From positions 222,321 to 286,320 of the forward strand of contig JACKGM010000002.1 of the NCBI GenBank assembly GCA_020639315.1: DNA of 64,000 nucleotides. Reading direction: 5' to 3'. Both the position numbers and the translations under genes were made by a program. Source of the stretch: Candidatus Nomurabacteria bacterium (GTDB taxonomy: Bacteria; Patescibacteriota; Saccharimonadia; JAGOAT01). Positions 8,719 through 63,847 of the stretch are shown piece after piece. Under the pieces are notes generated by a model, which was given only the letters and a program-made list of their open reading frames with translations, made no database searches and had not been told where the DNA came from. Position 1 is the first letter of the stretch, and each line of letters starts with the position of its first letter.

Positions 8719-8770
8719 TACTTGACATCATTATAAACTATCATCAGCCCAAAATCAAAACTTCCCTTTT

Positions 8771-8830
8771 CAAGGGCACCCCTTGCAATTTTATATCTGT
8801 TGACATAGTGATTTTCAAGGGCACCCCTTG
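8771..8830. repeat. Palindrome doublet, family 1 (arm CAAGGGCACCCCTTG x2, 30-nt spacer)
   Basis: Arms at 8771-8785 and 8816-8830, centres 45 bp apart. The same element occurs at 25983-26042 and 50501-50560. Confidence 0.9.
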
Positions 8831-8858
8831 AAAATCACTTATTTAAATACCAAAATAC

Positions 8859-11100: not shown

Positions 11101-12759
11101 CTAGATATTGCTTGCTATTTTAATCAATTGATCTTTGGCTAGTTGGTTACTGTCTCCTTCTATCCTATACCAAAGACCGTCATTAATCCAACTGATTTGA
11201 TTGTCTCCATATATATAAAGTGTCTGTCCTCCAGTCCTGAGAGCCTGATAACTATCACTGACACTGCTAATATAATCTTCGATCAGGTCTTGATCTGTCC
11301 ATTGACTAGACTGCTGAGAGATTGCCATTGTCGCTCGGTCGGTTGTATTGACCAAGCTATAGGTTAAACTATTATCTTCGATCTTGATGTCACGACTCAA
11401 TTGCCAACCACTCGGTAGATAACCAGGGACACTAGTAGCAATCCCAGCTCTGGCCCCAGCAATCTTAAGCGCCAAGCTAGGATAATTAACTTGCCATACG
11501 TAGACTAAGATTACAGCAAGCGCCAATGCACTCCCTGCAAGCTTAGCAATCCCCGGACTGGGCAAAGCGACTTTGCGGGCAAAAAAGTTTGAGACTCTAT
11601 TCTTGGTGTCCTGACTAATACTATTGACCTTACCAGATAAATTTGGTTTCAGCTTACTAGACTTCGTCTTGAGTTCAGGCTTAAGTCTATTACCAGCCTG
11701 ACCAACCTTGCTTCCTAAATCACTAGAGGCATTCTTGACCGAATCCCCTAGATTAGCTACTGATCCCTTGAGCTTATTCAAGTAATGCTGACTCTTAGAA
11801 GACTTTTGGGTCTTATTAGCTACTTCCGGCTCAGTAACCTGATTATCAATATTATTCTGCTCATAATATTGCTTATAAGTAGTATTGTCAGTATTCTCGA
11901 GCTGAGCGTAGTGGCTCTGATAATCGTAAACTTGATCTTGATTTGTCGAGCTGTCAACCGAAACACCAGAATAATGTTCTTCGGGATAATAGGCCTGATC
12001 CTGGTTATAATAATAACCCTGAGGATCTTGACTGGGTGAGTATTGTTGCGCGAATTCTTCTATTTGATTTTGGTCCTGACTATAACTACTAGAGTTAAAT
12101 GGACTTAATTCTGGGTGATCCAATCCTTGTGCTTGATTAGGACTAAGTTCAGGGGCAAAACTCTGCTCCATATCGCTTAGCTGATCATCACTTAACACAC
12201 TGTTTGGTCTAGCCTGATTCACTTGCTTAGTTGGCGCTGATTCGGTCAAAATTGGCGAAGAGACTTGCTGATAGTCACTGGGGATTGGATCGAAACGCTT
12301 TGCGTAGTCTGGACTTGATCCCTCAATACCTAACTCTATATTGTCACTAAAACCAGTTTTTGAATCAATTTGACCAACCATAGTCCTGTTAGGGGCTTTT
12401 AAGCTAGCAGTATCTAGTAGGTCTGGGGCTGGTTGACTAGCCGACTGAGTCACTGAACTTATGGCTGGGTTGAGCGGAGTTTCCAGCTGATAATTGGTGA
12501 TTGGAGCGAATGCTGGCTCTGCTATTTGATTGATAGGTTTTACGATCTGACCAGTATCTCTAGTGCTATTATCTGGCAAAGTTTTGGCAACAGAAACAGG
12601 ACTGGTTTTCTCAGTCTCACTAGCTTGGTTTGGGTTGGTCTTAACGCGAGATTTCGAATTGCCAAAAGCCTGACCACATGTAGTACAGTAGTCGCGTCCG
12701 GCGATTTGGATAATCTTACTACCCTGACAATTATCACAATTCATAAGCTTTAATATCAT
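11101..12759 (-). CDS. Hypothetical zinc-ribbon / low-complexity membrane protein
   Basis: N-terminal CDNC...CTTC ribbon, long Q/S/P/N-rich region, one TM helix (LAGSALALAVILVYVW), globular C-terminal domain. Confidence 0.5.
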   Translation of the reverse strand: MILKLMNCDNCQGSKIIQIAGRDYCTTCGQAFGNSKSRVKTNPNQASETEKTSPVSVAKTLPDNSTRDTGQIVKPINQIAEPAFAPITNYQLETPLNPAISSVTQSASQPAPDLLDTASLKAPNRTMVGQIDSKTGFSDNIELGIEGSSPDYAKRFDPIPSDYQQVSSPILTESAPTKQVNQARPNSVLSDDQLSDMEQSFAPELSPNQAQGLDHPELSPFNSSSYSQDQNQIEEFAQQYSPSQDPQGYYYNQDQAYYPEEHYSGVSVDSSTNQDQVYDYQSHYAQLENTDNTTYKQYYEQNNIDNQVTEPEVANKTQKSSKSQHYLNKLKGSVANLGDSVKNASSDLGSKVGQAGNRLKPELKTKSSKLKPNLSGKVNSISQDTKNRVSNFFARKVALPSPGIAKLAGSALALAVILVYVWQVNYPSLALKIAGARAGIATSVPGYLPSGWQLSRDIKIEDNSLTYSLVNTTDRATMAISQQSSQWTDQDLIEDYISSVSDSYQALRTGGQTLYIYGDNQISWINDGLWYRIEGDSNQLAKDQLIKIASNI

Positions 12760-12822: not shown

Positions 12823-12884
12823 TCGCGAACTGTTCGCGATTTTTACTAACTTACCAGATTACGAATGTCGCGAACAGTTCGCGA
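12823..12884. repeat. Palindrome doublet, family 2 (arm TCGCGAAC(T/A)GTTCGCGA x2, 28-nt spacer)
   Basis: Arms at 12823-12839 and 12868-12884, centres 45 bp apart. Confidence 0.9.
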
Positions 12885-12936
12885 TATTTTGATTTTGCGA
12901 AGCTTGTCAATACCTGTAAAACAAACCTACTCAAAA

Positions 12937-13455
12937 TTATGCTGGCTGCTTAGTATTGCCACCACAAGTCTGCTCATTCCAGAAACCTTGATTCTTAAAT
13001 CTGGCCAACTCCTCACTGAGCTTGAAATCAGCTTGATATAAATAGAGCTGATTATCATAAGTATACTCATGAGCATAACCCTGCTCGATCAATTCCTGAT
13101 TGAAGTTCTTGCCATCTAGGTAAACATAAGCAAGTAATCGTTGATACTTATCATAGTGAGCGACATAAGGATCAGACTCTAACGTAATCTGCTTCCCCTC
13201 TAGCTTATTTTTGCTATATTGACTAGCCTCTGTCCCGAAGCATTGCACGACTAGTCTCGGATCCTTAGTCTCAGGAGTATCCACCCCAATAAGCCTCACC
13301 CTCTGTTCTCTACCATTGAGACTAACCTCGATTGTATCCCCATCGATTACCTTTAAAACAGTTACCTGTTGGCTACTCAAACTAGATTGATTTTTAAACC
13401 AAACAAAGCCAATCAAGACCACTAATCCAAGCAAAACTCTAGCTAGTTTCCGCAT
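12937..13455 (-). CDS. Secreted thermonuclease (SNase family)
   Basis: Signal/TM N-terminus, VIDGDTIEV, RVRLIGVDTPE. Confidence 0.85.
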   Translation of the reverse strand: MRKLARVLLGLVVLIGFVWFKNQSSLSSQQVTVLKVIDGDTIEVSLNGREQRVRLIGVDTPETKDPRLVVQCFGTEASQYSKNKLEGKQITLESDPYVAHYDKYQRLLAYVYLDGKNFNQELIEQGYAHEYTYDNQLYLYQADFKLSEELARFKNQGFWNEQTCGGNTKQPA

Positions 13456-21011: not shown

Positions 21012-21173
21012 ATAGCAAGATCAAAACAAAACCGGACAATTTGAGCTGTACTATAGAGAACTAGAAAGGTAGTTATTCTTAAGAGCCATATTCATAGATA
21101 TGGTGAGTAAGAAAACTAGCTTTATAGACTCTAGAGTTGGGTCAAAAGTCTGGTTTTGGTTTTAACTTGCTAT
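21012..21173. mobile_element. MITE-like element, short copy 1 (~162 bp)
   Basis: Near-identical to 28959-29122. Imperfect ~30-bp terminal inverted repeats: ATAGCAAGATCAAAACAAAACCGGACAATTTG / CAAAAGTCTGGTTTTGGTTTTAACTTGCTAT. Confidence 0.75.
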
Positions 21174-25944: not shown

Positions 25945-25982
25945 TATACCATGCCAACCACTCTCCTCAAAAACCCCAGTTT

Positions 25983-26042
25983 CAAGGGCACCCCTTGACC
26001 TTTTTGATCTGTTGACTATTGCCTTTTCAAGGGCACCCCTTG
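25983..26042. repeat. Palindrome doublet, family 1
   Basis: Arms at 25983-25997 and 26028-26042, centres 45 bp apart. Confidence 0.9.
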
Positions 26043-26109
26043 AAAAAACGAGTTTAAAAAAATTAGACTAATAACCCTACTGGGATAAGCCTATTTACTA
26101 AACCTTAAT

Positions 26110-28958: not shown

Positions 28959-29122
28959 TATAGCAAGCTCAAACAAAACCGGACAATTTGAGCTGTACTA
29001 TAGAGAACTATAAAGGTAGTTCTTCTTAAGAGCCATATCCATATAGGTATGGTGAGTAAGAAAACTAGCTTGATAGACCCTAGAGTTGGGTCAAAAGTCT
29101 GGTTTTGTTTTTAACTTGCTAT
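28959..29122. mobile_element. MITE-like element, short copy 2, abutting the 3' end of rnpB
   Basis: Aligns end to end with 21012-21173; ends ...AACTTGCTAT immediately before the rnpB P1 3' strand. Confidence 0.75.
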
Positions 29123-29457
29123 GGGAGGTAGCTGGCTATAAGCCGAATTCTGTCCAACACATTTAGTGTCTGGATAATCATTTATCTTAGCGTCATACCC
29201 TTAGGCCAATTACTTGACCTAGACGGCGAGCAGCCTGGGTCCATTAGACTTGCAGCAGACAGGGTTTACCCCTAGATTATGTCGCCATAATCTACTGTGA
29301 GCTCTTACCTCACTCTTTTCACCCTTACCCGCAATGGGCGGTATTGTCTCTGTGGCACTTTCCCTAGGATTGCTCCTGGTCACAGTTAGTGACTGTCTTT
29401 GCTCTGAGCTGTTCGGACTTTCCTCCGCCAAAGCGGCGATTACCCACCAACTACCAT
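29123..29457 (-). ncRNA. rnpB: RNase P RNA, bacterial type A
   Basis: The minus strand contains GGAGGAAAGUCCGAAC (CR-I), GUGCCACAGAGACAAUACCGCC, GGUAAGGGUGAAAAGAGUGAGGUAAGAGCUCAC, GGUAAACCC and ACAGAAUUCGGCUUAU (CR-V). P1 pairs GGUAGUUGG with CCAGCUACC. Confidence 0.93.
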
Positions 29458-29463
29458 CCTAAA

Positions 29464-30117
29464 TTATAACTCATCGGTTTCGATTTGCTCAAGCAGTCGA
29501 AAGTCCAGCCACTCCTTGCCATATCCTCCCAAATAATAATGTAGTATTGAGTACAAATAATATCTTGGTTCTTTGCCCAGTCTCAATGGATATAATATTA
29601 GCTCTTTTATCACATTTTTTGACCTAGCATTTGTTTCTAATAGCAATTTATCTATGGTAAGTTCTTTTGATACACTAGGCATTGTATACGCAATACAATT
29701 TCTAAATTTTACAACATATTCATCAATGCAGATATCTTTACAGTTCTCAATCATTATCATAATTTTATTCGGTAATATACAAAATCCTAGTATTTTACAT
29801 CTTACTAAATCCTGGTTTTTAATCTTCATATCAGCTATATAATCTTCAAAGATTCCTGTTGCCATTCTGATAGCTTTGATTGCTTGCCAGTAATGGCTTG
29901 GTAACTTGAACAACAACTTACCCTTGGGCTGATCTTTGCATTTTACTTCTAGCAACCAAGAACTTAAAGCCAGTCTTGGCTGATCAATCTGATTAACTGC
30001 CTGGTTCTCTTGCTGAACCATTGACTGGTCAACTACCTGCCTCTTGATCCCTGCCCCTCCCCTTGCTTTTGCCCAATATTTCGTACAATACTTGTATACA
30101 TTTGCAATAGGGTCCAC
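29464..30117 (-). CDS. Decayed RAYT/IS200-like (Y1 HUH) homolog lacking the HUH histidines
   Basis: ILGFCILPNKIMIMI aligns to the family motif (a)yCLMPNHvHLL but with H->K and H->M. The C-terminal ELILYPLRLGKEPRYYLYS parallels YIHLNPVRAGLV..P.DY.WSS. No RYKS-type Tyr motif was seen. Confidence 0.45.
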   Translation of the reverse strand: MDPIANVYKYCTKYWAKARGGAGIKRQVVDQSMVQQENQAVNQIDQPRLALSSWLLEVKCKDQPKGKLLFKLPSHYWQAIKAIRMATGIFEDYIADMKIKNQDLVRCKILGFCILPNKIMIMIENCKDICIDEYVVKFRNCIAYTMPSVSKELTIDKLLLETNARSKNVIKELILYPLRLGKEPRYYLYSILHYYLGGYGKEWLDFRLLEQIETDEL

Positions 30118-30353: not shown

Positions 30354-30415
30354 TCGCGAACTGTTCGCGACTTTTGGTGCCTTCCCAGATTAGAAATGTC
30401 GCGAACTGTTCGCGT
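30354..30415. repeat. Palindrome doublet, family 2
   Basis: Arms at 30354-30370 and 30399-30415 (last base T), centres 45 bp apart. Confidence 0.9.
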
Positions 30416-30631: not shown

Positions 30632-30943
30632 CTAAAGTAATGCTTTTAAAACACTACCCAGTACTTCGAGTGCTAAGATTATCAAGAAGTAAGATAAATC
30701 AATCAAGTTTGATTTGGGGAGGATTTTTCTTACTCTAGTTAGGATTGGGTCGGTCAACTCATAGATGAAAAGCAAGATTGGGTTAGTGGTATTTGGCTTA
30801 TTATAATCACTAGTTCTGGTTAGAATTGAATAGATTAGCCTGACGAAGAATAATCCCTGCAATCCATAGACCACAATATCGATAAATAAGCTCCAATTGA
30901 TCTCCATAGTCTCAAGATTAACACAAGCACTAACCTGTTGCAA
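30632..30943 (-). CDS. yggT: YggT-family membrane protein
   Basis: ~100 aa, 2-3 TM helices, ELTDPILTRVRKILP motif. Confidence 0.7.
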   Translation of the reverse strand: MQQVSACVNLETMEINWSLFIDIVVYGLQGLFFVRLIYSILTRTSDYNKPNTTNPILLFIYELTDPILTRVRKILPKSNLIDLSYFLIILALEVLGSVLKALL

Positions 30944-36081: not shown

Positions 36082-36120
36082 GCCAGTTTACGAAAAAAGT
36101 TTTTAAAATCCTGTGGATAA

Positions 36121-36571
36121 TACATCCTCCGAATCCTCCTTGAGAAGGTTACGGGATCCAGTATCTATAGCATTGTCATCTTGCAAATACCAGAGGGTTT
36201 ACGGGGGATCCAGTATTCCAGCATTTGCATTGTCATCCTCCGAATTATCCTTAAGAGAATTACGGGGGATCCAGTATCTCGCATTGTCCTGACTCCTAAT
36301 ACAAATACTGGATCTCCGGTATTTCCCCAAGGGGAAATCCGAAGATGACAAGAGGGGATGGATCTCCCATAAACCCCTGCCGGATTTTGGAAGATGACGC
36401 GAAGAGGGGGCGGAAATTTGGGTTGATGACAGAGGGAGCATTGTCATCCTCCGAAACCCACCCCTCTCCTGTCATCCTCCGAAGTTCGGAGAACTTACGG
36501 GGGATCCAGTATTCCCGCATTTGCATTGTCATTCTCCGAATTCTCATGGAGAATTACGGGGGATCCAGTAT
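36121..36571. repeat. Hairpin-unit cluster 1 (class A units +, class B/C units -, plus half units)
   Basis: Units at 36121-36164, 36175-36216, 36231-36277, 36470-36512 and 36527-36571 (+), and at 36305-36350 and 36358-36398 (-). Half modules at 36399-36437 and 36442-36469. Confidence 0.9.
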
Positions 36572-36596
36572 CTCGCATTACCATGGGTCTAATTCA

Positions 36597-36721
36597 ATGA
36601 TTTTTATTGCGTGTTGGCAAAGCACGGCAAAGGATAACAGCCATATACTGCGCAGTGATTTATAAATTTGAGATAAAAAGGGTAGTTTTTACGCCATGAA
36701 ATTATATGGCAACAGGGTTAT
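36597..36721. repeat. ~125-nt conserved element, copy 1 (one terminal repeat only), directly downstream of ftsZ stop
   Basis: Shares ATGATTTTTATT..., AAA(A/G)CACG(A/G)CAAAG(C/G)ATAACAG, CTGCG(A/C)AGTG and the terminal TTATATGGCAACAGGGTTAT with 38715-38840. Confidence 0.6.
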
Positions 36722-38225: not shown

Positions 38226-38444
38226 TATTCCCTCCTATGATGTTATAAATTGCTAATGGTATTTTTATTTGGTTAGACTCCCGACCAATCAATTTGTATT
38301 GAACAGTAGTTATAAATACTAGTCTAAGCTAGTTGTTCAACAAATGCAAGTTTTTTATACACAAGTTTTTACTAACTTGATAAAGAGTACATATATTATT
38401 CATATCCTTCACTCTGATGTCAGCACAGGACTTTCGCACTTCCT

Positions 38445-38670
38445 TGTCATCCTCAAAAAATCTATGAGAGTTCAATTCAAATACTGAATATCCCATAATT
38501 TCTTACAGAAATTTGGAAGATGACGGTGCAATGCCATTAACTTAAGACTTTGTAAGTTTTATTCAATGTACAAGTCAAGCATTAGTAGAACTCCAAAAGG
38601 TACTGATCTCTCCTTAAGTTAACGGTATTGAGATGACACGGGGGGCGGAAATTTGGGCTATTGACAGAGG
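38445..38670. repeat. Hairpin-unit cluster 2, distal part
   Basis: 5' half unit at 38445; class C unit (-) at 38481-38525; degenerate unit (-) at 38600-38638; GGCGGAAATTTGGG module at 38639-38670. Confidence 0.8.
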
Positions 38671-38676
38671 AGGAAT

Positions 38677-38839
38677 TAACCCTGTTGCCATATAAACTTG
38701 CGAGGTCAAAGCTGATGATTTTTATTCCAGAATACCAAAACACGACAAAGCATAACAGGAGTTACGCTGCGAAGTGTTTTGCTAGTCTGGGGCAAAAATG
38801 GCAGTTTTGAAGCCGTGAGGTTATATGGCAACAGGGTTA
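38677..38839. mobile_element. ~163-bp element with perfect 19-bp terminal inverted repeats (MITE-like), copy 2 of the 125-nt element
   Basis: TAACCCTGTTGCCATATAA (38677-38695) and TTATATGGCAACAGGGTTA (38821-38839). The interior is homologous to 36597-36701. Confidence 0.65.
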
Positions 38840-38840
38840 T

Positions 38841-38993
38841 TGTCATCCTCCGAAACCCGAAGGGTTTACGGGGGATCCAGTATTCGGCATTGCGCATTGT
38901 CATCCTCCGAAGTTCGGAGAACTTACGGGGGATCCAGTATTTCAGTATTTGTCAAATCAAAAATCAAGGGAATTTACAAAAAAAAACCAGTAT
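38841..38993. repeat. Hairpin-unit cluster 2, ftsA-proximal part
   Basis: Class A units (+) at 38841-38883 and 38898-38940, with a degenerate TGTCA...CCAGTAT remnant to ~38993. It ends 2 nt before the ftsA stop codon. Confidence 0.85.
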
Positions 38994-40216: not shown

Positions 40217-40265
40217 TGATTATATTATAGCATACCCAAACTCTCCCCTTGCAAGCCTCCCCTAA

Positions 40266-40325
40266 CGGGGTCTGACCCCGAAACTGAACCATTTAACAGA
40301 TATAAAATAACGGGGTCTGACCCCG
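40266..40325. repeat. Palindrome doublet, family 3 (arm CGGGGTCTGACCCCG x2, 30-nt spacer)
   Basis: Arms at 40266-40280 and 40311-40325, centres 45 bp apart. The reverse-complemented spacer shares ATTTTATATCTGTT with the family-1 spacer at the same offset. Confidence 0.9.
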
Positions 40326-40366
40326 AAACTAATTTTTCTAAACAAGATTTACTGCAAGGTATAAGA

Positions 40367-50448: not shown

Positions 50449-50500
50449 GCTTCACCCCTCTCATTCCACGCCACTCCCCCTCACCCAAAAATCCCAATTT

Positions 50501-50560
50501 CAAGGGCACCCCTTGCGATTTTATACCTGTAAAGCACCCTCTTTTCAAGGGCACCCCTTG
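50501..50560. repeat. Palindrome doublet, family 1
   Basis: Arms at 50501-50515 and 50546-50560, centres 45 bp apart. Confidence 0.9.
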
Positions 50561-50622
50561 CAAAAAAGGTTATGGCAAAATAGGGGTGATTTTGGGCAGG
50601 AGTTCGGTTATACTAAGTAGGT

Positions 50623-54116: not shown

Positions 54117-54178
54117 TCGCGAACTGTTCGCGATTTTTAGCACCTTTCCAGATTAGAGATGTCGCGAACTGTTCGCGA
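54117..54178. repeat. Palindrome doublet, family 2 (upstream flank of RAYT-like gene)
   Basis: Arms at 54117-54133 and 54162-54178, centres 45 bp apart. Confidence 0.9.
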
Positions 54179-54295
54179 AATTTATTAAATATTTATACAT
54201 AACACGATACTTATGCTTGCAAATAACCCCAAAACAGTTAAGATATGACTAACTTCGTTATCTTTATAGTCCACTACTAAAATGGTTTAAATCTC

Positions 54296-54850
54296 ATGTC
54301 CGCCAGAAACACCTACAGATACAAGGTCGATAATACATTTTTGCATATATACTCTCGTGCCAATAATAAAGTTCCAGTATTTATCAATCAGAAATACTTT
54401 GATAAATTCTTAGATATCTTACTATTTTTACTTACGACTGATGACAATTTAGCCGACTCCCTTAGGTTATTTAGTAGACCTAGAAAACCATGTCAAAACT
54501 TTTCCAAAAATATCAACCTCGTGTCTTTCTGCATAATGAACAATCACTATCACCTTATAATCTATATTAAAGATAGTGATAAGTTACCAAAATTCATGCA
54601 TTTGTTTCACAGAAAACTTACACAAATTATCAACTCTGATCAAAATAAAGTTGGTCATCTGATGCAAAGTAGGTACAAATCTAGACCAATATTATCAGAA
54701 GTAGACTTGCTAAATGTATCTGCCTATATTCAACTAAACCCAAATGAAATTCATCCACAAGATAGCAACTACTACCTCAGATACCCCTTCTCTTCGCTCA
54801 ATTCAACTCATATGATTTCTAAAGTAGTCAGTACTAATATGATTTTTTAG
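54296..54850 (+). CDS. IS200/RAYT-like Y1 HUH transposase (REP-associated tyrosine transposase-like)
   Basis: FCIMNNHYHLIIY (HUH), GHLMQSRYKS (catalytic Tyr context), AYIQLNPNE...YYLRYPFSS tail. AT-rich gene flanked by family-2 doublets on both sides. Confidence 0.7.
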   Translation: MSARNTYRYKVDNTFLHIYSRANNKVPVFINQKYFDKFLDILLFLLTTDDNLADSLRLFSRPRKPCQNFSKNINLVSFCIMNNHYHLIIYIKDSDKLPKFMHLFHRKLTQIINSDQNKVGHLMQSRYKSRPILSEVDLLNVSAYIQLNPNEIHPQDSNYYLRYPFSSLNSTHMISKVVSTNMIF

Positions 54851-54992
54851 GTACACCAGTATTTCAAAGCAACAATATCTTGAATATCTTAATGCCAAAT
54901 CCAAGGATTTTGCAGAATATCAAATTATCAAAAAATCCCTATAGTAAATGATGGAAATTATCAAAATACAATATATTATGCAATATTTTTTG

Positions 54993-55054
54993 TCGCGAAC
55001 TGTTCGCGATTTTTAGCACCTTACCAGATTAGAGATGTCGCGAACTGTTCGCGA
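54993..55054. repeat. Palindrome doublet, family 2 (downstream flank of RAYT-like gene; overlaps 3' end of nadD)
   Basis: Arms at 54993-55009 and 55038-55054, centres 45 bp apart. The nadD stop codon (55029-55031) lies in the spacer. Confidence 0.9.
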
Positions 55055-55634
55055 AAAGTTGATTTTTGGTGATGTAGTCAAGGACTGGCTGGCTGAGTCC
55101 TTGGGGAGCTTGGCGATTGGCTAATTGTTGGCGGATTTGGGTGGCTGAAGTCAAATCATCTATCATTGCGACCTCTTGATATCTCAGACTAGGAATGGAT
55201 CGAAGTTTTGCCTGGATTTGTTTTGACTGATGATGATAACCTGCTCGCTTAATCCAGACGAAACCTACTCGATGTTCGAGTAGATAATCTAGCCCCTGCC
55301 ACTGATCGAGATTGGTAATCCCGTCACTACCCAAAACAATATCGACCTTAAGACCCTTGCCATAGATCTCAAACAAATCCTCCACTACCTGATAATCTAT
55401 TACTCTGGCTTCTGACTGAAAGTCATACTTATCGAGCACCGCTTGTCTATTGCCCAATCCCAATCTCAGCATTGCTTTACGATCGTCAAAACCAACTAAA
55501 CCTGCCAAGTTCCTCCGATTCTCGAGCAAGATTATTACCTCATCATAGTCCCTTGATGATAGATAGTCTACTACTGCGAGATGCCCCTGATGAACGGGGT
55601 TAAAACTTCCTGAGTACAAGGCTAGCTGGTTCAA
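55029..55634 (-). CDS. nadD: Nicotinate-nucleotide adenylyltransferase
   Basis: YSGSFNPVHQGHL motif. The last 8 codons (FANSSRHL*) are encoded by the repeat. Confidence 0.85.
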   Translation of the reverse strand: MNQLALYSGSFNPVHQGHLAVVDYLSSRDYDEVIILLENRRNLAGLVGFDDRKAMLRLGLGNRQAVLDKYDFQSEARVIDYQVVEDLFEIYGKGLKVDIVLGSDGITNLDQWQGLDYLLEHRVGFVWIKRAGYHHQSKQIQAKLRSIPSLRYQEVAMIDDLTSATQIRQQLANRQAPQGLSQPVLDYITKNQLFANSSRHL

Positions 55635-62410: not shown

Positions 62411-62527
62411 CGTCTTATCTTACCACAAAACCCCGCCCAATAGAATTAAATCTAAACGAACCTTACCGGCCAAATCAACCCTCTTTTTCTTTCTTTGGGC
62501 TTGCGTTATGGCAGTTTACAATACAAA

Positions 62528-62963
62528 ATACTGGATCCCCCGTAAGTTCTCCGAACTTCGGAAGATGACAGAAGAGGGACAGGTTTCGGAGGATGACAGG
62601 AGTTGGTCACCAAACCAAATTTCCGCTCTCTCCGCGTGTCATCTTCCAAAATCCCTTACTCCTCGCGTGTCATCTTCGGATTTCCCTTTAGGGAAATACC
62701 GGAGATCCAGTATCTGGATTGGATTCCAAAAATGCGAAATGCTGGATCCCCCGTAAGTTCTCCGAACTTCGGAGGATGACAATCCCCTTCCCGTGTCATC
62801 TTCGGATTTCCCCTTGGGGGAATACCGGAGATCCAGTATCTGGATTGGATTCCAGAAATGCGAAATGCTAGATCCCCCGTAAGTTCTCCGAACTTCGGAG
62901 GATGACAATGCCCTTTTGTGTCATCTTCCAAATTTCCGTAGGAAATTATGGGAGATCCAGTAT
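62528..62963. repeat. Hairpin-unit cluster 3 (class A units -, class B/C units +; 125-126 bp higher-order period)
   Basis: Units at 62528-62570(-), 62668-62713(+), 62739-62781(-), 62794-62839(+), 62865-62907(-) and 62919-62963(+). Half modules at 62571-62598, 62608-62636 and 62637-62667. Confidence 0.9.
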
Positions 62964-63270
62964 TTGAACCACAAATTTTAATAACCTGAACACAATATTT
63001 ATTTTTGATTTTTTGTGACTATAAATGAGTACCAAATTAGCTACAATATTAACTATTGGCTAGAGTAAAATATTTACTCAGCCTTCAGCCAAACACCTAG
63101 CAAACAATTTTGGTATGAATAATAATTGATTTCCCTAGCTAAAACGCTAGAGAGACTAGCTGTACTAGTTTTTACTATGGATTTTTGACACCGACTTAGT
63201 CCGCAATCATATGCCAATGTATCCATTCAGATTATTATTTTTTTTAACTTACTTACTCCCTAAATATAGG

Positions 63271-63847
63271 ATACCCAAAACCAAACCGGACAATTTGGGA
63301 CTACTAATAAAGAGTTGGAAAGTTAGTTCATTTTATGAACCTTACTTATCTATTTAAGCCAAAATATTAAAATACCGCTATGTCGCAAAATATTATTTAC
63401 TATTACCTTTACCCCCAAGTATTCTCTTCTCTTTTGCCATCCTCCGAGTAGCTAGCTCTGTTTATTGTCATCCTCCGAAACCTGTCCCTTCTTTCTACCG
63501 CCCTCCGAAGTTCGGAGAACTTACGGGGGATCCAGTATTCCCGCATTTGCATTGTCATCCTCCGAAACCCGAAGGGTTTACGTGGGATCCAGTATTTTGC
63601 ATTCCTGAGGCTCAACTCAAATACTGGATCTCCCATAATTTCCTACGGAAATTTGGAAGATGACTAGAGGAGAGTATTGTCATCCTCCGAAGTTTGGAGA
63701 ACTTACGGGGGATCCAGTATTTTGTATCTGGAGTCATCAACAAAAGACAAGTTGGTTTTAGGTTAAGATTAGTATCCATAGTATACCCAAAACAAAACCA
63801 GCATTAGTAGTCCCAAATTGTCTGGTTTTGGTTTGGACATGCTATAG
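63271..63847. mobile_element. Long member of the MITE family (~577 bp) enclosing hairpin-unit cluster 4
   Basis: Left arm CCCAAAACCAAACCGGACAATTTGGGACTACTA (63274-63306) and right arm TAGTAGTCCCAAATTGTCTGGTTTTGGTTTGG (63805-63836). The left ~75 nt align with the short MITE left half, and the element ends ...ACATGCTAT. Confidence 0.6.
63434..63720. repeat. Hairpin-unit cluster 4
   Basis: Class A units (+) at ~63499-63538, 63553-63595 and 63678-63720. Class C unit (-) at 63621-63665. Half modules at 63434 and 63466. Confidence 0.85.

Follow-up and report, generated by a model that had tools for sequence, protein, structure and literature searches.

Repetitive extragenic palindromes (REPs) and REP-associated tyrosine transposases (RAYTs) have been studied almost only in Proteobacteria, mostly in species with large genomes, and the E. 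coli TnpAREP/REP system is reportedly the subject of two studies from 2012, by Ton-Hoang and by Messing. In that system the gene for a single-tyrosine (Y1) HUH protein is bracketed by its own dispersed extragenic palindromes, each paralog has its own repeat family, and the gene is chromosomal and vertically inherited. The 64-kb stretch of contig JACKGM010000002.1 analyzed here (the window), from a Candidatus Saccharibacteria genome, contains a RAYT-like Y1/HUH gene bracketed by two copies of a 62-nt palindrome doublet, and this gene together with the doublets found elsewhere in the genome probably constitutes a REP/RAYT-type system, or "REPtron".

Canonical REPs are marked by a 5' GT[AG]G tetranucleotide at the hairpin foot, and in a survey that included no genomes of the Candidate Phyla Radiation (CPR), Y1 genes not belonging to insertion sequences (IS) showed enrichment in large genomes and were missing from the reduced genomes of the Mollicutes sampled (Quentin et al., 2018, PMC6006769). 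In Pseudomonas fluorescens SBW25, REP doublets forming hairpins (REPINs) consist of two units with a short spacer foldable into one long hairpin, occur as several families per genome, each tied to the RAYT that it flanks, and have intergenic copies (Bertels and Rainey, 2011, PMC3116915); all of these features recur here. The IS200/IS605 elements IS608 and ISDra2 share the catalytic fold and likewise have hairpins on the coding strand on both sides of the gene. Full-text literature searches returned no paper linking RAYT, REP or REPIN with Saccharibacteria, Patescibacteria or CPR.

The Y1/HUH gene and its palindrome doublets

The open reading frame (ORF) carries the motifs NHYHLII, QSRYKS and YIQLNP and scores 33 bits against the Pfam Y1_Tnp model (cut-off 23), which bears out the Y1/HUH assignment made from the letters alone in an earlier note on this DNA. 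The HUH histidines H84 and H86, the candidate catalytic tyrosine Y144, and N148 are invariant in 25 aligned relatives. The sole NCBIfam match of the window protein is REP_Tyr_transpos (equivalog NF047646), which all 25 relatives also match; the IS200 model NF033573 is not matched by the window protein and is matched weakly by one of the 25 relatives (E 7e-4). A single-sequence search of the Protein Data Bank (PDB) with the window protein gave nothing useful, and matches were obtained from profile and fold searches. With an AlphaFold2 model of high confidence (mean predicted local distance difference test score 92.5), the top Foldseek match in the PDB is 4ER8, E. coli TnpAREP with a REP hairpin and a protein of similar size (E 9.7e-6, template modelling scores 0.56/0.62), followed by the TnpA proteins of IS608, ISDra2 and IS200 at E ∼1e-3, about 100-fold weaker. 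The profile alignment to 4ER8 spans the HUH, QxR[FY], YIxxNP and [WY]P[FY]S motifs, with the Q and the next R in register, whereas the IS-type alignment stops before [WY]P[FY]S. These matches establish the protein family, the fold and the catalytic residues, and the protein leans toward RAYT rather than IS200 TnpA.

A protein identical to that of the window is annotated in Candidatus Saccharibacteria assembly GCA_020428505.1. There is one Y1 gene within the window and no tnpB near it there; searches for phage matches gave none, and those among 72,556 plasmids gave 12 weak partial ones. The GC content is 0.29–0.33 over the gene and 0.42–0.49 in its neighbors, so that the AT-richness remarked on earlier is real. 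Low GC (0.32–0.33) is common to the ortholog and the paralog described below, indicating a stable property and not a sign of recent arrival.

The flanking element, family F2, reads as a palindrome TCGCGAACTGTTCGCGA, a 28-nt spacer and TCGCGAACTGTTCGCGA again (17+28+17), and the same reading holds at all four positions at which doublets had been reported. The upstream and downstream copies differ by a single spacer base (T/A), and each of the two dispersed F2 copies shows six spacer differences and one palindrome difference. Allowing up to three mismatches, the F2 palindrome has 17 strand matches in 64 kb where 0.06 are expected, and none of 100 shuffled sequences reached that number. Two further families share the architecture. 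F1 (palindrome TCAAGGGGTGCCCTTGA) is present at 8770, 25982 and 50500 of the window and at 10014 of L123, a contig of the same assembly sampled over 11.5 kb, with the 17+28+17 layout except that the spacer at L123 10014 is 27 nt; F3 is described with the paralog. The palindromes of the three families have only the outline TC......N......GA in common, and yet spacer positions 16–20 of all copies, once these are placed in a common orientation, read CAGAT, as in the upstream F2 doublet, or CAGGT, the variant of two copies.

As single-stranded DNA the doublets overall fold far better than shuffled sequences (z −3.4 to −7.8). Copies of F2 and F3 form one long hairpin in which the first palindrome (P1) pairs with the second (P2) around a 28-nt loop, at −17 to −23 kcal/mol (z −6 to −7.8); the upstream F2 doublet folds in this way at −17.6 kcal/mol (z −6.0). 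Copies of F1 form two small hairpins in place of the P1–P2 pairing. In addition, F1 and F2 copies share the sequence (T)TGATTTTTGG(G) directly after P2 and a CCCAAAATCACCC-like motif before P1 (for example at window 55055–55075, 12885–12900 and 50470–50499, and at L128 10643–10680), and these two motifs are roughly inverted copies of each other. The full element may thus be ∼120 nt long with imperfect terminal inverted repeats, for which the statistics are modest. Between the upstream doublet and the start codon lies the motif TTATGCTTGCAAA, which was not called in a consensus promoter scan; a promoter or regulatory function in expression of the gene is possible.

Compared with E. coli REPs, which are imperfect palindromes of 20–40 nt, the units here are short, perfect 8-1-8 palindromes paired at a constant 17+28+17 spacing, with CAGAT conserved in the spacer, and the host has an ultra-small CPR genome. 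Compared with the REPINs of SBW25 (PMC3116915), each unit is itself a perfect palindrome, so that "inverted" and "direct" arrangements differ at the central base only, and the protein comes from a different, CPR-dominated branch of the family. The logic is clearly RAYT-like, whereas the hairpin and guide features are non-canonical and the host is unexpected.

Cognate pairing at three loci and the nadD overlap

An ortholog of 215 aa, 72% identical to the window protein, occurs in other samples at the same locus (ruvX, nadD, the gene, then an ORF of 199–202 aa). It too is bracketed on both sides by 17+28+17 doublets, whose palindrome is TCGCGGAC.GTCCGCGA where that of the window gene is TCGCGAAC.GTTCGCGA. 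From window to ortholog, each of the four palindromes shows A>G at position 6 and T>C at position 12, compensatory changes by which the predicted hairpin is preserved. A paralog, P0003 (216 aa, 54% identity), is found on L123, which comes from the same sequencing run, and is flanked on both sides by F3 doublets (TCGGGGTCTGACCCCGA + 28 nt + TCGGGGTCTGACCCCGA, with arms TCGGGGTC.GACCCCGA); further F3 copies lie 700 nt away, at L123 1305–1366, and at 40265–40326 of the window. The strand carrying CAGAT is the coding strand at each of the three gene loci, and the flanking doublets are direct repeats. Cognate pairing is thereby established at three loci, and as read from these sequences the genome holds at least two co-diverged gene/doublet pairs and a third doublet family for which no gene was found. 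The suggestion that the gene is single-copy stands for the window and for each doublet family, but not for the genome, given the paralog with its own doublets. The paralog has as neighbors on L123 (1422–1948 and 3322–9885) a toxin-antitoxin pair of the RelB/YafQ type and the gene for a surface-type protein of 2187 aa in which CLIPPER and SdrD_B domains occur.

Between window and ortholog the ratio of nonsynonymous to synonymous substitution rates (dN/dS) of the gene is 0.11 at a dS of 1.57, and the corresponding values for the neighboring nadD are 0.096 and 1.48, indicating that the gene has occupied the locus, with purifying selection acting on it, no less long than its housekeeping neighbor. 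The gene is probably fixed in the chromosome and inherited vertically, and its product is probably a Y1 HUH single-strand DNA endonuclease/transposase with cognate 62-nt elements. These observations also bear on the alternative that the locus is an autonomous IS200/IS605-type insertion sequence, with the hairpins as its ends and the gene-less doublets as miniature derivatives resembling miniature inverted-repeat or palindrome-associated transposable elements. The Y1 fold is common to IS608 and ISDra2 TnpA, and the directly oriented hairpins on the coding strand at both sides of the gene recall the arrangement of IS200/IS605. In addition, a single hairpin per side is seen in many metagenomic homologs, which lie on very short contigs, and the gene is AT-rich relative to the genome. 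Nevertheless, an insertion sequence would not be expected at a fixed syntenic position in two genomes near synonymous saturation with a housekeeping-like dN/dS, in one copy per family, unaccompanied by tnpB and unmatched by the IS200 model; moreover, complete doublets and not single ends are found on both sides. This alternative is considered improbable.

The downstream doublet overlaps the 3' end of nadD, which encodes nicotinate-nucleotide adenylyltransferase. Codons 194–201 (FANSSRHL) and the TAA stop, at 55029–55055, fall within the doublet, as had been proposed from the letters alone, and NadD profile matches stop at residue 193–197 of 201 (TIGR00482 at 193), short of this tail. The tail was compared between two sequences found by protein search, both with the repeat at the site. 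The NadD of the ortholog's genome, 78% identical, ends LFADSP*, its tail encoded in that genome's own palindrome and its TGA stop produced by CGCGA>CGTGA in the palindrome arm, and the Asn/Asp difference between the tails is a coding consequence of the compensatory hairpin change. The tail therefore follows the repeat and does not reflect conservation at the protein level. From these two sequences the overlap is judged older than the split of the two genomes. At the doublet overlapping nadD the right-hand flank motif falls in nadD codons T-K-N-Q, so that the overlap may exceed eight codons.

Dispersal of the doublets and the shortened reading frame

Doublets were counted over 75.5 kb of the genome, namely the window and L123. 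Twelve doublets of three families are present, eight in the window and four in L123, and they include the doublets away from the gene that had been noticed earlier (Table 1). Except for the 27-nt overlap with nadD, all 12 occupy intergenic DNA, in spite of a coding share of at least 85% in the window. Sequence differences among F2 copies affect 2 of 68 palindrome positions, compared with 12 of 56 spacer positions (Fisher p = 0.0014). The F1 copy between priA and def is missing from the orthologous spacer of the related genome that carries the ortholog, for which 20.6 kb are available and the only doublets present are the two that flank its gene. Extragenic dispersal and one presence/absence difference are accordingly established, as are synteny and purifying selection. 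Short-read contigs from several public runs end inside doublets (L004 at both ends, L001 and L002 at the 3' end, and L211 at a point equivalent to window 8797), as expected of a multi-copy sequence. Extension of the window through the genes at its edges added about 3 kb of new sequence, the other assemblies being broken up at repeats. The full doublet pattern had no match in a metagenome contig collection in which this lineage is not represented, and a loose pattern, TCGCGRACWGTYCGCGA, searched over 596 Gb of genome contigs, returned at least 118 lone chance palindromes in unrelated, mostly GC-rich genomes.

Table 1. Positions of the gene, the doublets and associated features in the window.
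Feature	Position	Strand	Remarks
F1 doublet (TCAAGGGGTGCCCTTGA type)	8770..8831	-	CAGAT on minus strand; short-read contig L211 ends within
Dispersed F2 doublet	12823..12884	+	Intergenic, between ORF 11101-12759 and SNase gene 12937-13455
F1 doublet	25982..26043	-	
Dispersed F2 doublet	30354..30415	+	Intergenic, between ORF 29464-30117 and YGGT gene 30632-30943
F3 doublet (ACGGGGTCTGACCCCGA + 28 nt + ACGGGGTCTGACCCCGA)	40265..40326	+	Family cognate to paralog P0003 (other contig, same assembly)
F1 doublet	50500..50561	-	priA/def spacer
Upstream F2 doublet	54117..54178	+	P1 54117-54133, spacer 54134-54161, P2 54162-54178; exact pattern match
Motif TTATGCTTGCAAA	54211..54223	+	Between upstream doublet and start codon; near-identical in ortholog (L001) and paralog (L123) at the same relative place
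RAYT-like Y1/HUH gene	54296..54850	+	184 aa as it stands; HUH H84/H86, catalytic Tyr candidate Y144 in YIQLNP
Frameshift site ATGATTTTTTAGG and tail	54839..54944	+	ATGATTTTTTAGG at 54839-54851; 0-frame TAG 54848-54850; +1-frame 31 codons 54849-54941, stop 54942-54944
Downstream F2 doublet	54993..55054	+	Direct repeat of upstream doublet; overlaps nadD 3' end
nadD (nicotinate-nucleotide adenylyltransferase)	55029..55634	-	Pfam and NCBIfam matches

The distribution of the doublets might instead reflect a host structural or regulatory function, in which they would serve as sites for a dimeric DNA-binding protein, as terminators or as RNA-stabilizing hairpins and would spread or persist on that account, the Y1 gene being a mere neighbor or a processor that does not transpose. 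The palindromes are symmetric like operator sites, the copies are all intergenic, the spacer and flank motifs are conserved, and one hairpin is called terminator-like. That call is weak and is the only one, and the T-runs lie apart from the stems, unlike those of intrinsic terminators; a search for known RNA families with Rfam matched only the RNase P RNA in the window. The orientation of the doublets with respect to flanking genes is inconsistent, F2 and F3 running opposite to their neighbors and F1 either way. Furthermore, three Y1 genes each have their own palindrome variant on both sides, the palindrome changing with the gene, and hairpin-flanked genes are a trait of the whole family. A host structural or regulatory function of this kind is very unlikely, somewhat less likely still than an autonomous insertion sequence.

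The reading frame of the window gene requires separate consideration. The 184-aa ORF reported in the earlier note is present, but it is shortened relative to the ortholog by one extra T within ATGATTTTTTAGG, and the same sequence occurs in three assemblies. Skipping one T yields a 215-aa protein colinear with the ortholog, the last 31 residues being identical at 26 of 31 positions with proportions of nonsynonymous and synonymous differences (pN and pS) of 0.12 and 0.85, respectively. This 31-aa tail is conserved in the family and includes a near-invariant Tyr. The truncation is either recent or bypassed by a programmed frameshift, and the sequence U-UUU-UAG-G would let tRNA-Phe re-pair in the +1 frame at the stop codon.

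These features raise the possibility that the locus is a decaying relic, a former REP/RAYT pair whose enzyme has been inactivated by the frameshift and whose F2 doublets are fossils. A single inserted nucleotide cuts off a conserved tail, the lesion is common to three assemblies, the protein collection holds no intact version of this species' gene, and the dispersed F2 copies have diverged in their spacers. However, the tail is free of further lesions, with 84% identity to that of the ortholog, the catalytic core is intact, the palindromes are still perfect in all F2 copies, and the site may allow a +1 slip of tRNA-Phe at the stop codon. Decay is accordingly regarded as possible but doubtful, although clearly less remote than the two alternatives considered above.

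Several further observations weigh against the preferred interpretation as a REP/RAYT-type system. The match to REP_Tyr_transpos, at 42.7 bits, is below the cut-off of 80, so that the profile check proposed in the earlier note singles out the RAYT model but does not reach its threshold. Among the guide-recognition residues W94, Q95 and R104 of E. coli TnpAREP, Trp94 aligns to Phe in the family consensus and to Met in the window protein (LMQSRY), and the GT[AG]G foot is absent beside every palindrome, on both strands and in all copies, which resembles the atypical subclasses 2.6 and 3 of PMC6006769. The frameshift removes the conserved tail in the window copy, and the F2 enzyme of this genome may be impaired. 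Dispersed and gene-flanking F2 copies differ at 21% of spacer positions, giving no sign of recent bursts, and the copy number per genome is sampled over the 75.5 kb. No Y1 gene cognate to F1 is present in the window or L123; P0004 (37% identity, the closest other representative) was considered for this role and rejected, its source being a different organism and its palindrome not that of F1. All contigs derive from metagenome assemblies, L123 being placed in the same genome by binning and by the occurrence of F1 and F3 on both contigs, and mobility is inferred from one presence/absence difference and analogy. Despite these points, the cognate pairs of the ortholog and paralog, the synteny and the housekeeping-like dN/dS support the REP/RAYT reading first put forward in the earlier note, and checks on the three refuting conditions named there did not refute it.

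The window contains other repeats. A second family forms tandem clusters at 36100–36600, 38400–38950, 62500–62965 (minus orientation) and 63464–63727, composed of units of ∼57 nt in which a variable hairpin is enclosed by the conserved ends GTCATC[CT]TC... and ...ACGGGGGATCCAGTAT. Covariation in the outer stem of these units (CCTCCG/CGGGGG, CTTCCA/TGGGAG, CTTCGG/CCGGAG), together with T-G wobbles confined to one strand, hints at RNA. The clusters are found at the flanks of ftsZ, ftsA and nrdR and have no Rfam match; identification as TIGR-Tas arrays, an idea taken from PMC12045711, was rejected in view of these neighbors, with no Nop-domain or Tas-like gene nearby. A 150-nt repeat occurs at 21024–21173 and 28971–29122 (95% identical), with partial copies at 63278–63350 and 63803–63846. 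The copy at 28971–29122 is immediately adjacent to the RNase P RNA gene (29123–29455, minus strand) at its 3' end, and a relaxed Rfam scan of the repeat gave nothing meaningful. ARAGORN finds no tRNA gene in the 64 kb, nearly all genes of the window are encoded by the minus strand, and the profiled 50–59 kb have a negative GC skew.

The wider family, a possible mechanism and implications

The protein belongs to a large family, with 5540 representatives at E ≤ 1e-3. A profile search at E ≤ 1e-10 returned over 7000 clusters, and where source names are given, as they are for a few, they point to Patescibacteria/CPR; one cluster is named "REP-associated tyrosine transposase" by the Joint Genome Institute. 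Among 69 metagenomic homolog loci with enough flanking sequence, there are 37 in which the two 200-nt flanks have an exact match of 13 nt or more in common, compared with 7 of 428 control ORFs of those loci. Most of the matching sequences are perfect hairpins located 30–60 nt before the start and 1–50 nt after the stop, usually with one hairpin per side, and the hairpin tip is often G[TA]C-N-G[AT]C (e.g., AGGTCNGACCT and GGACAGTCC; loci L127 and L130–L209). The recurrent tip suggests a conserved way of tip reading. A hairpin-bracketed gene is thus general in the family, and the fixed doublet seems to be specific to this Saccharibacteria lineage.

The most likely mechanism is modelled on E. coli TnpAREP and IS608, and it is by this analogy that hairpin binding, a cleavage site and transposition are proposed; any benefit to the host is likewise putative. 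The protein would bind the hairpins in single-stranded DNA, for example at the replication fork, and cleave at a fixed site relative to them, the HUH-bound metal and Tyr144 producing a 5'-phosphotyrosyl link. Candidate cleavage sites are the spacer CAGAT and [TG]GAT plus a T-run just 3' of the second hairpin; CAGAT and TTGAT near the hairpins recall the TTGAT cleavage/target site of ISDra2, a lead only. Doublets moved or copied in trans would be non-autonomous, REPIN-like elements, and one ancestral insertion onto the 3' end of nadD would have supplied what are now its last codons and stop.

A broader interpretation is offered only tentatively. The family may be a large, undescribed, CPR/Patescibacteria-centred branch (the more than 7000 clusters) of domesticated Y1 nucleases that recognize the G[TA]C-N-G[AT]C tip, with no GTAG foot and with xxGAT in place of the guide tetranucleotide. 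In Saccharibacteria, several co-evolving doublet populations in a genome of ∼1 Mb (about one doublet per 6 kb sampled) might then shape gene ends, and the dosage of the enzyme might perhaps be set by +1 frameshifting at UUU-UAG-G.

Two co-evolving pairs and a third doublet family in the ultra-small genome of an episymbiont run contrary to the trend toward large genomes, and imply that CPR genomes, streamlined as they are, accommodate hairpin elements in considerable numbers or even make use of them. Such repeats can rewrite the 3' ends of genes, as at nadD, and they fragment short-read Saccharibacteria assemblies. With three palindromes in one architecture, and an ortholog one compensatory pair apart, the system offers a natural specificity set for GTAG-free hairpin reading.

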